DNA from: an uncultured Christensenella sp.
GTDB taxonomy: Bacteria; Bacillota; Clostridia; Christensenellales; Borkfalkiaceae
Length of the DNA: 64,000 nt
NCBI GenBank assembly: GCA_910576655.1
Contig: CAJTJC010000007.1
Location: forward strand, 17,363 to 81,362
Direction of reading: 5' to 3'
Below the pieces are notes generated by a model, which saw only the letters and a program-made list of their open reading frames with translations, had not been told where the DNA came from and made no database searches. The position numbers and the translations under genes are program-made. This document shows, in pieces, positions 25,077-57,279 of this stretch (position 1 is the stretch's first letter; the number at the start of each line of letters is the position of its first letter).

Positions 25077-28000
25077 TTAAAGTGAAAACCCATCGCAGGT
25101 AGCAGAGAAATCGTTGGTAATATACGCGTTATTGACGTATGTACCGCCTGTACGGGTCAACTTATTGCCCGATACCGTCATAATAACGGTTTGACCTACG
25201 CCGCTGCCTATTGCCTTGGTTAAAGTCATAGTAAGCTCGTTACCTTTTAACTCTCCGATAAATTCAAACGCGCCGTAATAGCCGCAATCGATTTTACCTA
25301 CGATAGTCGCCTCGTCGTTAAACGTTATAGTACAGTTGTTAGAATCGCCAAAACTGTCCTTATAAGTACCGTTAAACGTAAGCCCCGCAAAAGCAGACTT
25401 GCCGAGGAACTGCTTGTTTTCAACGTCGATAACGTACTTGGTTACCGCTTCGCCGTCGTATACGGATATACTCGTGCCGCTGACGACGTAAGTTTTGGTA
25501 GTGCCGACAACTCCGCCGAGACCGTCAAGCGTTATCGTGCCGCCTTCGGGAAGCGTATATTCGCCCGCATATCCGTCCTGAACGTAAGCAAAGCTTCCGT
25601 TTTCTTTATCGACGGTTATAACGTGCATACGGTTGTTGTGTGTAAATACCAGCTTGCCGTCCGAAATAACGTAACTGTCGGGAGTAGACGCGCCTACCGT
25701 TAGCGTACCGCCGCCGTCTACCACAATAGTCGTCCCTTCAAAAGTATAGGTGCCCTGATACCCGTCAAGCTCTACTACGTTTCCGTCCTTCAATACGGCT
25801 ATAACCGAGCCGTCCGAAGCGCTGACGATATGGTTAGTATTATGACATTTATCGGCAGTCTGACTACCCCAGCTTACGCCGGTATAGATTTTGTTGTCAT
25901 ATCCGAAGACGTTAACGTCCGGTTTCGATGCGTCGACAAATTTGACCGTTGCCCAGAACGTATAAGGATTTGTCTTTAAACCCGAGTAAACGACTTCTTT
26001 TACAAGTTCGGGATTAAACAGCAAATACGTATCGTTGCCTACGGAAGTCGCATTGCTGCCATACGCGTACCAGATAACTCCTACGGACTTATCGACATAA
26101 GCATACTTACCTACGTTTATCGCCCCCGAAGTCTTGCTGATGTCCGCATCCGACAGCGTACCCTTGGTTGAGCTATAGGCATATTCGCCCGCCACGCCCA
26201 TCGTAAACGTTGTTGATTGACTTGCAATTATTTTGGTACCGTTTTCACCCGCGCGGTAAAGATTCCAGCCCTTGTACGTTCCTGCCATTGCAGCAGGCGT
26301 TACCCACTTGGCGTAAACGTCGAGCGTAACGCCGGAAATTACGGTATCGCCCGTAACCTCTGCGCCCCAGTCGCCGTCGGCGCCGTCCTTAGTGAACCAG
26401 CCCGCAAACGCCATTCCGTCGTTTTCGTAGTCGATTTCAGGCAAATTATCCGCTCCGATTGCGTCGTTCACGAAGCCGCCGCGGTACACCGTATCGGTAT
26501 GTCCTGCCGCGTTAACGTGGAACGTAACTTCCGCTTGCGCGTCCCACTTGGCGTAAAGCGTTGCGTTTTCACCCGTAACGTACGTATCGGCAGCCTTCGA
26601 CTTATATTCCGCATCGGTATACCAGCCACGGAATACGAAACCTTCCGCCGTCGGGTTCTTTGCCGTCAAATCCTGAGCAAAGAATTTATTTATCGTTATC
26701 GTTTCGTTTGCGCCGTTACCGTTCATTTCAAACGTAACGGTTACAGAAGGTTGTTCGATAACGGTTGAGCCGTCGGCGCCGATTACGTATAGCGCGGAAG
26801 CTTTATAGCAGTCCTTAGCGTCAATATCGTTGCCGCCTGTTGCCGCGTCCTTAAAGGATACGCCGAAGTACACCTCGCCGTCCGCAATATAAATTCTGTA
26901 AGTAGTATCGGCGTCGAACGCATACTCTATTACCCTGTTCTTACCGCCGTTCCAGTAAGACGAAGAAATCTTATCGTAAATGCTACCCGTTTCTTTATTG
27001 TTAAGCAGCCAGACTTCAGAAATTTTCGTACTTACGCCTGATGACGCAGCCATAACTATCAGTCCGGTTTCGGGGTCGATTGCCGCATTATAAACGGAAT
27101 TGCCTACTTTAACAGTAAGCTTTGTAGTTGAATTTTCGACGTAAGCAATTTCAACCGCGCCGCTAAACGGATAGGCCGTTGCCTCCGCGTTACCGTAAGG
27201 GTCAACCGAAATCGCGTTGGAGCTTCTGTCGTCTTTACCGCTAACGCCGGAGACATCTTTTCCGTAAATTCTTATAGGCGCGTAGATATCGTTAAACAGA
27301 GGCGCAGCCGTCCACTTTGCGTAAACCGTAAGATTTTCCGTCACCGTGCTGCCGCTAACCCATTCATCGCCCCAGTCGCCGTCAGCGCTGCCGTCTTTTA
27401 AGAACCAGCCGACGAACGCGTGCTTATTATACACGGGCACGTCTATAACTGCGCTGTCTCCGACCGAGTAACGTATAGTTTCGTCCTGCGTTTCGCCGTC
27501 GTTGAATACAAGCGTCAGCGAAGCGGGATTAGAATACTTTGCGTAAATAGTCGCGTTTTCCGTGAGAATAAAAGTATCTTCTATTTTTTCGGTACATTCC
27601 GCGTCCTTAAAGTAGCCGTTGAACACAAACTCCGTATTGAACGACGCGCCGTCCGGCAACGAGGCAAAATTGTTGATATTGATATTTACGTTAAACGCCG
27701 CAATCTCGTCCGGAAGAGTCGTGCCTGCGGGCGCAACGGCGGTTACAGTTACCGTTGCCTCGGGCTTAACCGCCGTGTAGGCTTTCTCTGACAGCGTTAC
27801 GTCCCAGTATTCCCTATTGACACCTTCGGAAACTACAAACAAACCGAGACTACCGCCGTTAGTAACGTAAGTACCGGATTTTTCGCCCCAGATAAAGCTG
27901 CCCGTTCCGTCAAGCGAGATATCGCCGTCCGTACCGATATATGTACCGAAATATTCGTCAAGCGACTTAACATTGTTGTCGGCATTGAAACTGTCGCCCT

Positions 28001-56106: not shown

Positions 56107-57279
56107 TTATTTTTTTACAGTTACTTTGCCGAAGTCGCACCCCGTCTCGCTCGTGCCCTCGCTGACGAAAGTTCCTCTGTCGGTAACGTAGATTATCTGA
56201 GCGGTGGTTCTGTCCGTTGCCCCGAACGTCCCCGCAACGCTCACGTTTTCAAACGTGCTGTTCTTCGCGCTGACCGCAAGCGGCGCAACGTAAATTTTAT
56301 CTATGTCGGAAAGGAAGGTATCCACCGTCACCGTCATATTCTCGAACGAAACGTCCTTTACCGTCACGTTCTCGGCGTTTCCGAATAGCGCCACGCAAAG
56401 CGCCTTCTTCTTCTCGTCCTCGAAATCGGGTACGAGGTCGTATCTCGAATTGCCGTACTCTAAGGTGAAGTTGGAAACGGTATGTCCGTTGCCGATAAAC
56501 GTCTTGCCGTTGAAGTTGGTAAAGCTTAGCGGTTTGCCCTCCATATCGATATCGGCAAGCAAATAGATATTTCTCGAACGCGCCGCTTTAAGCTGCGCCG
56601 CCGTTCTGACTATCGTATACGAGCCCTCGATATACTCGACGTAAAGCTTAACCGCCGTACTCTCTTCGCCGCCGGGGTGTCTCACGCTGTCGTCGAACGG
56701 AATTTTATGCTCGGGGTCGTAATAGACCGCTATCGCGGTGTGCCCCTCGTATCCGTTCGCGTAGGTCAGCACGTCGTTCTGCCATACGTCGCCGAACGTG
56801 TTGCCCGCGTTGACCTTGTAGCTGTTCGCCACCCGCTCGACCCCGTTTGCATCCGTATAGACGAAATCGAAGCTGTAAACTATCGGGGAATTCCACTTCG
56901 CGTACAGCGTCACCCCGTCGTCCGTCACGACGTCGGTTTCGAAATTCCATCTGTCGGAATATTCCACCGCTTCGCCCTCGACCGTTTTCGTTCTGTACCA
57001 GCCGTCTAAGACGAAGCCCCCGTCGCGCGTTACGCCGCCCTCTGAAAAGCTCTTGTCCTCGAGCGGAAGTATCCGTCTCGGCGCGCCGCCTTTAAACTCG
57101 TAATAGTGACTTACGCTGGTAGTGCTGTTGAGGTATTTGCCGCCCTCTAACTCGTAAACCACCTTCACCCTGTCGGCGTACTTGTCGTCGTAATCGATTT
57201 CATCGCCGCAGGCGGAAAGCGCCGCCGCTGCCGAAACCGTTAATATGCACGCCGTGCCGATTGCAAGTTTTTTAAACAT
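56107..57279 (-). CDS. lipoprotein with one Listeria-Bacteroides (Flg_new) repeat, remainder unassigned; first gene of the 32 kb operon
   Basis: Lipobox LSAC-GDE. The Flg_new unit is FVLDGWYRT...VTLYAKW. A later segment, GKTFIGNGHTVSNFTL, recalls motifs seen in other Firmicutes surface proteins. Confidence 0.75.
   Translation of the reverse strand: MFKKLAIGTACILTVSAAAALSACGDEIDYDDKYADRVKVVYELEGGKYLNSTTSVSHYYEFKGGAPRRILPLEDKSFSEGGVTRDGGFVLDGWYRTKTVEGEAVEYSDRWNFETDVVTDDGVTLYAKWNSPIVYSFDFVYTDANGVERVANSYKVNAGNTFGDVWQNDVLTYANGYEGHTAIAVYYDPEHKIPFDDSVRHPGGEESTAVKLYVEYIEGSYTIVRTAAQLKAARSRNIYLLADIDMEGKPLSFTNFNGKTFIGNGHTVSNFTLEYGNSRYDLVPDFEDEKKKALCVALFGNAENVTVKDVSFENMTVTVDTFLSDIDKIYVAPLAVSAKNSTFENVSVAGTFGATDRTTAQIIYVTDRGTFVSEGTSETGCDFGKVTVKK

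Follow-up and report, generated by a model that had tools for sequence, protein, structure and literature searches.

In the 64,000-nt window analysed here, which is the whole stretch of contig CAJTJC010000007.1 presented above (uncultured Christensenella sp.), thirteen consecutive open reading frames (ORFs) on the minus strand form a 32 kb block, designated g1–g13. We interpret this block, with confidence slightly better than even, as a cell-surface proteolysis and peptide-import system. Protein feeding is the best-supported reading of the predicted gene content, in which a proteinase with an intact active site (g8) and a full Opp importer with an AppA/OppA-like binding protein are encoded together in one conserved operon. 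The pairing of a cell-envelope proteinase with Opp is itself of a known kind. What is new is a single-operon architecture conserved in about a hundred uncultured species. In addition, the protease is anchored in a different way, OppA is unusually large, a tail-anchored micro-protein (g7) is present throughout, and four families of large lipoproteins have no assignable fold.

ORF listing and translation recovered all thirteen minus-strand genes at the coordinates of the original prediction, in the order g1, oppA, oppB, oppC, oppD, oppF and g7–g13. Intergenic gaps of only 10–101 nt had been claimed, which holds for the genes that are separated but not for oppD/oppF and oppF/g7, which overlap by 19 and 41 nt, respectively. 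At 9 of the 12 junctions the genes overlap or lie no more than 21 nt apart (g7 and g8 are separated by 14 nt), and the three longest gaps are those of g1/oppA (101 nt), g11/g12 (64 nt) and oppA/oppB (47 nt). A signal peptide ending in Cys was identified in all eight predicted extracytoplasmic proteins (g1, OppA and g8–g13), in agreement with the lipobox previously noted on OppA and on the seven large non-transporter proteins, and the lipobox is also present in the orthologues. All eight products are therefore predicted to be tethered to the membrane. The seven lipobox proteins other than OppA, protease g8 included, sum to approximately 8,200 aa.

The central enzyme, g8 (41060–48601), is a 2513-aa S8 protease in which Pfam analysis identified Peptidase_S8, PA, Big_2 and BspA-type leucine-rich repeat (LRR) domains (LRR_5, E value 1e-122). 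From the N-terminus, the protein comprises the lipobox, a region of about 190 aa, the S8 domain with its PA insert, an Fn3-like domain, Big_2, the LRR region, a transmembrane helix and a basic tail. The PA domain (residues 484–561, E value 2e-15) lies within the S8 match (residues 212–682), and the LRR region, at approximately residues 1427–2230 (about 800 aa), aligns to BspA-like LRR structures. Residues 189–876 align to the structures of C5a peptidase, SpyCEP and cell-envelope proteinase A (E values 4e-66 to 2e-59). The alignments with C5a peptidase extend to residue 876, past the catalytic domain; fn3_5 scored under its cut-off in the window protein (19.6 vs 27.6 bits) and appeared without a sub-cut-off mark in orthologues. 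An Fn3-like domain is thus predicted directly after the catalytic domain, as in the cell-envelope proteinase branch.

The catalytic triad (D221, H293 and S622) and the oxyanion residue N394 are invariant across 69 g8 sequences, and because of this invariance g8 is expected to be catalytically active. The S8 identity given in the original prediction was upheld, with the active site intact, and could be narrowed: by its predicted architecture, g8 is a member of the C5a-peptidase/lactocepin cell-envelope proteinase branch of S8 subtilases. Against the NCBIfam SGO_0316/0317 subfamily it scored 257.8 bits with a cut-off of 1400 and so falls below it; a match to the NCBIfam adhesin HupY/LrrG was also obtained.

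The anchoring of g8 differs from what had been proposed. The lipobox previously credited with tethering the protease is present, but a second, C-terminal transmembrane anchor had been missed. This hydrophobic helix and the basic tail that follows it (window positions 41060–41180) are kept in at least 58 of 68 orthologues, while the orthologues of L021, L049, L068, L076 and L077 appear to be without the helix. In loci lacking a separate g9, the g8 tail is longer and acidic. No LPXTG-like motif was found in g8, nor an LPXTG or S-layer-type wall anchor. The approximately 190 residues between the lipobox and the catalytic domain correspond to the length of a cell-envelope-proteinase pro-region. 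By analogy with dentilisin (PMC8167434), this region may be removed, after which the C-terminal helix and/or partner lipoproteins would retain the enzyme on the cell. Pfam searches of the 13 products detected no PrtM/PrsA-type rotamase and no PrsA family.

All five parts of an Opp/Dpp-type transporter were identified: a family-5 binding protein, two BPD_transp_1 permeases and two oligo_HPY ATPases. The binding protein, OppA (53354–56005), is an 883-aa lipoprotein (Cys29) that scored 82.8 bits against SBP_bac_5 with a cut-off of 32.4 (Pfam). OppB (52299–53306, 335 aa) contains BPD_transp_1, and OppC (51125–52288, 387 aa) contains BPD_transp_1 and OppC_N. The ATPases OppD (49933–51114, 393 aa) and OppF (48833–49951, 372 aa from the ATG used by public gene calls) each contain ABC_tran and oligo_HPY, the latter with E values of 8e-17 and 8e-20. 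In sequence searches of OppA, phmmer found no PDB chain and a profile search gave only weak matches to OppA sequences (E value about 1e-7). The AlphaFold model (predicted local distance difference test score (pLDDT) 82.7; predicted template modelling score 0.77) displayed the cluster-C binding-protein fold, and Foldseek returned as its best match B. subtilis AppA with a nonapeptide (1xoc), with a template modelling score (TM score) of 0.80 normalised to the target. Further top matches included NikZ, YntA and MppA as well as the OppA proteins of Lactococcus, Yersinia, Haemophilus and M. tuberculosis. Roughly residues 165–365 form an insertion, about 200 aa long and mostly helical, that is conserved within the family. 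The importer identity originally given is supported by this oligopeptide-binding-protein fold and by the complete OppBCDF set in Pfam. The predicted transporter has the features of the Opp/Dpp ATP-binding cassette (ABC) family, OppA is not an orthologue of any named OppA, and an oligopeptide would be the putative ligand of OppA/OppBCDF.

Conservation of the block was examined in loci carrying relatives of g10, which were collected by a pattern scan with one genome per GTDB species (110 genomes, 80 loci fetched); gene order was determined by tblastn of the 13 window proteins against the fetched loci and by ORF mapping. The g10 protein has 95 relatives in a collection of 5.8 billion proteins, none with a functional name. 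In every sufficiently long locus among the 80, the order oppD-oppF-g7-g8-(g9)-g10-g11-g12-g13 was observed on one strand with similar protein lengths, and it holds at g10 identities of 36–66% and locus GC contents of 28–60%. The upstream part, g1-OppA-OppB-OppC-OppD-OppF-g7-g8, was found in three further genomes (L086, L088 and L090), whose contigs carry OppA homologues of 54–58% identity and unrelated genes upstream. At the other end, three contigs with g13 homologues run from g9 or g10 through g13 and then into unrelated genes. Since the order is kept while both flanks change between genomes, the conserved unit is exactly g1–g13. Its recurrence in about 70 independent species-level genomes places this gene order far beyond what chance would produce. 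Absence of synteny in relatives, which the original prediction had named as evidence against its proposal, was not observed; the order is essentially invariant across about 70–110 species.

Median best high-scoring segment pair identity to the window was 76% for OppD, 72% for OppF, 53% for g8, 44% for g7, 41% for g10, 38% for g11, 36% for g12 and 33% for g13. Conservation falls from the cytoplasmic to the predicted exposed parts, a pattern expected of surface-exposed partners. All carriers are metagenome-assembled genomes (MAGs) from animal gut, with record names referring to mouse, human, chicken, goat, sheep, deer and rabbit, and mouse-gut assemblies match the window sequence. Their taxonomy follows the NCBI labels of the submitters rather than GTDB placements; these are mostly Christensenella, Christensenellaceae, Christensenellales, Eubacteriales and Clostridia. 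The same block is carried by 21 loci of 28–32% GC (L016, L021, L023, L025, L034, L041, L046 and 14 others) with labels such as Bacilli, Mollicutes, Acholeplasmatales, Anaeroplasmataceae and 'Staphylococcus sp. CAG:324'. Protein identity in these loci is similar to that of Clostridia-labelled MAGs of 40–60% GC. The low-GC carriers reflect either unreliable labels or else an ancient shared block or lateral transfer. In one locus, an inovirus-like prophage (L092:16543-25268) directly follows g13 and encodes a Zot-like ATPase, a REP_ORF2-G2P replication protein, a helix-turn-helix regulator and a phage integrase.

The large lipoproteins downstream of the protease are built from repeated surface modules and extensive regions without recognisable folds. 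Proteins g10 (38141–40483, 780 aa) and g11 (35729–38119, 796 aa) are paralogues (hhalign probability 100%, E value 1.5e-45, 657 columns), and neither has a Pfam match. The g10 model (pLDDT 85.7) contains a Fn3-like domain, a Big_2 domain and then three beta-rich modules. Foldseek against PDB gave low-TM-score matches of g10 to strings of immunoglobulin (Ig)-like domains (ROS1, Sap and complement C3), together with a local LprG/LppX-like similarity (TM score 0.44–0.49 normalised to the target); these matches were judged insufficient to assign a function. In a profile search of 1.84 billion representatives, g10 retrieved about 60 full-length or fragment members followed by thousands of generic Ig/Fn3 matches, and no remote family was found for its C-terminal 570 aa. 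The PDB profile search of g11 returned an Ig-like domain only.

Protein g12 (31276–35664, 1462 aa) matches Big_3 in Pfam, with Big_3-like Ig repeats at approximately residues 45–625, about seven by estimate. The PDB profile search returned nothing for g12, and its roughly 850 C-terminal residues gave no match in any of the searches. A relationship of g12 to g10 or g11 was considered, and the comparison was negative. The last protein, g13 (25077–31256, 2059 aa), closes the block and shares modules with the g12 C-terminus. It matches Flg_new in Pfam, with at least six Flg_new/InlB B-repeat units by eye, and its PDB profile search returned InlB B-repeats only. Residues 33–460 of g13 (window positions 29876–31160) consist of five tandem repeats of about 82 aa, each with one invariant His, Trp and Cys. 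Their motif, H.[YF]G.WT...PT...G.A.R.C...PAL[ST]D..[VF]WTE, has no Pfam match; repeats in orthologues often carry a second Cys (C.CG), a hint of a small metal-binding or disulfide module. The repeats of g12 and g13 were detected by windowed phmmer, and self-BLAST for internal repeats gave nothing. A match of the unassigned lipoproteins to families with unrelated known roles, which had also been named as evidence against the proposed function, was not found by Pfam, NCBIfam, PDB profiles or one Foldseek search.

Three smaller products complete the block. The 85-aa g7 (48616–48873), previously described simply as a membrane protein, is indeed predicted to be one and can be refined to a tail-anchored protein with one C-terminal transmembrane helix. 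It has a Lys-rich basic cytoplasmic N-terminus with a conserved DDG[RH]T.Y.M motif, a [ST][RK]KE[RK].A motif, and a C-terminal helix ending in WL. It has no Pfam match and belongs to no assigned family. A g7 of approximately 75–95 aa follows oppF in every locus examined (L006–L085); in L088 it was missed by the public gene call. The first gene, g1 (56107–57279), encodes a 390-aa lipoprotein with an LSAC lipobox, and its orthologue adjoins OppA upstream in L086, L088 and L090. Its earlier description as a Flg_new lipoprotein was not sustained, as no Pfam match exceeded the threshold: a Flg_new repeat was detected only at E values of 7e-5 to 0.065 in the window protein (0.065) and three orthologues. 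The C-terminal half of g1 is beta-helix-like, likewise under threshold, and in orthologues this weak match accompanies that to Flg_new. The 183-aa lipoprotein g9 (40494–41045) has no recognisable domain, with no PrcB-related or other Pfam match even at E values up to 1. It is a separate ORF in 44 loci. Fusion of g9 to g8 in the remaining loci was rejected: a g9 hidden Markov model finds nothing in those g8 proteins, and g9 is therefore an optional component.

Signals for transcription of the block were found at both ends, where the original prediction had placed them. A minus-strand promoter-like site (57313–57342; TTTACA-18-TATAAT with an upstream TG, 11/12 matches) lies about 30 nt 5′ of the g1 ATG, and a strong intrinsic terminator with a 14-bp stem followed by a T-run is located on the same strand at 25027–25057. 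No canonical terminator had been reported inside the block. Three stable hairpins had been overlooked, one in each of the three longest gaps; none has a U-tract, and no shuffled sequence folded equally well. All are on the minus strand. Two adjacent stem-loops lie 3′ of the g1 stop (56053–56101), in a gap that folds with −26.9 kcal/mol (z −5.15); a 14-bp GC-rich stem-loop lies between the oppA stop and the oppB start (53318–53348), in a gap that folds with −29.6 kcal/mol; and a GC-rich stem-loop is found between g11 and g12 (35688–35712), in a gap that folds with −31.2 kcal/mol. The hairpin after oppA is at the same position in two of three other genomes checked (L088 and L090) and not in the low-GC L086. 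At these three hairpins the mRNA may be processed or stabilised, or transcription may end in part. Hairpins that tune segment abundance within one transcript are a common pattern of binding-protein-first ABC operons. Internal promoter-like hexamers exist, for example at 49731–49704 and 29167–29140, and shuffled sequence is expected to yield nearly as many promoter-like and terminator-like sites as were counted inside the block. No Rfam family was detected anywhere in the window, and a search for CodY control gave no CodY-box match above chance and none near the promoter. From this layout, g1–g13 would be co-transcribed as a single transcript.

Lactic acid bacteria possess a cell-envelope proteinase, PrtP (lactocepin), a maturase, PrtM, and an Opp importer (PMC2827410, PMC10535647). 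The original prediction cited the lactococcal system as a functional analogue, and the analogy is borne out by the shared proteinase branch and transporter family. Both combine an extracellular, cell-bound S8 subtilase, which belongs to one and the same branch and carries a PA insert followed by an Fn3-like domain, with a lipoprotein OppA and an OppBCDF transporter, so that surface proteolysis would lead to oligopeptide uptake. In contrast to lactococci, in which protease and importer genes are unlinked, the two share one conserved operon here. The block also differs in having no PrtM/PrsA-like rotamase, in a protease whose lipobox and C-terminal transmembrane helix replace the LPXTG or S-layer-type anchor and which adds about 800 aa of BspA-type LRR, and in an OppA of 883 aa with its helical insertion. 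Five to six extra lipoproteins and the tail-anchored g7 have no counterpart in lactic acid bacteria.

A second analogue is dentilisin of Treponema denticola, the acylated PrcB-PrcA-PrtP protease complex, from which an N-terminal acylated pro-peptide is removed and in which the partners hold the enzyme at the surface (PMC8167434). Homologues of PrcB are reported to be absent beyond oral Treponema, and both PrcB and PrcA are described as unique to oral spirochetes (PMC8167434). As in the block, a single operon encodes a lipidated (here predicted) S8 protease and accessory lipoproteins. The dentilisin partners are of about 20 kDa and at least 70 kDa, whereas those in the block are much larger (780–2059 aa); moreover, dentilisin sits in a diderm outer membrane and its operon has no importer. 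Pfam appears to hold a PrcB C-terminal family. No PrcB or PrcA relationship was detected for g9–g13, including in the Pfam searches of g9, g10 and g11 described above. By analogy, dentilisin may offer a model for the second anchor of g8 and for its conserved partner lipoproteins.

C5a peptidase (ScpA/ScpB) and SpyCEP share with g8 the catalytic domain, PA insert and Fn3 architecture, but these streptococcal virulence factors are each encoded by a single gene, are anchored by LPXTG and act on a narrow set of host substrates, and g8 has the LRR and other modules as well as a conserved operon context. The polysaccharide utilisation loci and 'utilisomes' of Bacteroidota resemble the block in combining in one locus a surface enzyme, Ig-stalked lipoproteins with a distal globular domain, a binding lipoprotein and an importer. 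The machinery is nevertheless unrelated: the importer of the block is an ABC system of the cytoplasmic membrane, its predicted substrate is protein rather than glycan, and Pfam detected no SusC-like TonB-dependent transporter or SusD-like lipoprotein among the 13 products, so that the likeness is one of analogy only. In a literature search that did not span all journals, no published description of the block was found, only the analogues in lactic acid bacteria and dentilisin.

In the reading that we favour, the g8 subtilase would act as an active cell-envelope proteinase on the outer face of the membrane and cleave extracellular proteins. Its LRR and Ig-like modules, together with g1 and g10–g13 on their Ig, Fn3 and Flg_new stalks, would bind or present substrate, with a possible further role as a scaffold for the enzyme. 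OppA, itself a lipoprotein, would catch the resulting oligopeptides and pass them to OppBCDF for ATP-driven uptake, and the hairpins after g1, oppA and g11 would probably give segments of one transcript different mRNA levels. The products may associate physically, and the lipoproteins may capture substrate. Of the capture, degradation and import machine originally proposed, the enzyme, the importer and the synteny were corroborated, while the physical machine, its substrate, capture by the lipoproteins and the single transcript are features that we infer.

A stricter version, held only tentatively, is that the 13 products assemble in fixed stoichiometry into a single surface machine, which would amount to a 'protein utilisome' of Gram-positive type. 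With its two anchors, the proteinase would then be docked directly above OppBCDF through the g10/g11 pair, g12/g13 and the helical insertion of OppA, and the tail-anchored g7 would join the membrane parts. Proteins caught by the machine would be cut, and the peptides would be channelled to the importer with none released to competitors, and the approximately 5,000 aa of unassigned modules would represent new substrate-capture or scaffold folds.

Several points weigh against the favoured reading of proteolysis and peptide import. The streptococcal relatives of g8 (C5a peptidase and SpyCEP) serve immune evasion rather than nutrition, and the BspA LRR, InlB B-repeat and Ig-like modules are of kinds usual in adhesins. 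Approximately 5,000 lipoprotein residues have no assignable fold, so that any role of the lipoproteins is putative. OppA is far from any named equivalog, its best NCBIfam match being Opp4A with 67.5 bits against a cut-off of 650, and NikZ, YntA and NikA score almost equal to peptide binders in its fold search; nickel chelates, opines, haem and sugars are further ligands of family-5 binding proteins. Given its internal hairpins and promoter-like sites, the block could also be expressed in segments or independently.

An adhesion and immune-evasion apparatus, in which Opp merely salvages released peptides, appears unlikely as an alternative. In this case the LRR, Ig and B-repeat lipoproteins would mediate attachment to mucus, epithelium, food particles or other microbes, and the protease, like C5a peptidase and SpyCEP, would cleave particular proteins of host defence or matrix. 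Consistent with this, those two enzymes come closest to the catalytic region of g8 among solved structures, g8 carries the strong BspA-type LRR_5 match and the HupY/LrrG adhesin match, Flg_new/InlB B-repeats occur in g13 and weakly in g1, and the source genomes are all animal-gut MAGs. Yet the block is kept in gut MAGs that their record names link to mouse, human, chicken, ruminants and rabbit, which makes a single host-specific target unlikely. The transporter genes are the best conserved and are never split from the rest, and lactic-acid-bacterial proteinases of the same branch are nutritional (PMC2827410).

We consider it rather improbable that the block encodes a structural layer of the envelope, with the five large lipoproteins as the main surface coat, the protease maturing it, as PrtP cleaves PrcA, and Opp recycling fragments. 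Such a coat would fit the size of the block (32 kb, with about 8,200 aa in the seven lipobox proteins other than OppA) and its place in the conserved core of the lineage, and dentilisin provides a documented case in which a partner lipoprotein is processed in a protease-dependent manner (PMC8167434). The g10 model also weakly matches the B. anthracis S-layer protein Sap (Foldseek E value 9e-6, TM score about 0.1), but the S-layer matches have very low TM scores, reflecting generic Ig-like strings. Searches of the block proteins detected no SLH, CWB2 or other S-layer anchoring domain, and a coat leaves unexplained why an importer with a specialised 883-aa binder is the most conserved part. Least probable of all is that two unrelated neighbours, an opp operon (g1–oppF) and a surface-protein operon (g7/g8–g13), lie side by side uncoupled. 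The promoter-like hexamers inside the block, hairpins that could end or process transcripts, and the unlinked protease and opp genes of lactococci (PMC2827410) would be compatible with such a division. The oppF/g7/g8 junction argues against it, since a 41-nt overlap is followed there by a 14-nt gap, and this junction is kept in every locus reaching that point, over GC contents of 28–60% and g10 identities down to 36%. In addition, both flanks vary between genomes while the 13-gene block is constant, and the internal sites are not much more numerous than shuffling predicts.

Other loci were observed on both sides of the block in the window. Directly downstream, a nucleic-acid scavenging locus occupies positions 6085–24948 of the minus strand. 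It encodes a SNase-domain lipoprotein (7674–9035), an ABC importer with a lipoprotein SBP_bac_8/1 binding protein (9039–14155), a secreted Endonuclease I with Big_2 domains (15772–17937) and a lipoprotein 5′-nucleotidase (20503–21996), as well as uridine kinase, pyrimidine-nucleoside phosphorylase, cytidine deaminase, phosphopentomutase, purine-nucleoside phosphorylase and DeoC. A perfect sigma-70 consensus (TTGACA-17-TATAAT, 12/12) at 24982–25010 on the minus strand, directly after the block terminator, heads the deoC-side operon. The scavenging locus shares the design of the block, with a surface hydrolase, an ABC importer and then catabolism, and lends weak support to a polymer-scavenging lifestyle of surface hydrolysis followed by import. 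On the other side, divergent plus-strand genes (57606–62060) encode a HMGL-like synthase of the homocitrate or citramalate type, an aconitase-family protein and an isocitrate/isopropylmalate dehydrogenase, a short oxidative-branch or amino-acid-biosynthesis set. This set is not kept beside the block in other genomes (L086, L088 and L090).

In these uncultured gut bacteria, a 32 kb operon that has been kept whole in about a hundred species probably plays a central part in feeding or attachment. If the favoured reading is correct, the block would explain the means by which these anaerobes compete in the gut for protein from the diet or the host, and it would represent a Gram-positive, ABC-transporter-based counterpart of the Bacteroidota utilisome concept. 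The conserved families g10/g11, g12, g13 and g7 and the OppA insertion would then be available for structural and functional discovery, and the block supplies marker genes with which proteolytic capacity may be tracked in gut metagenomes.

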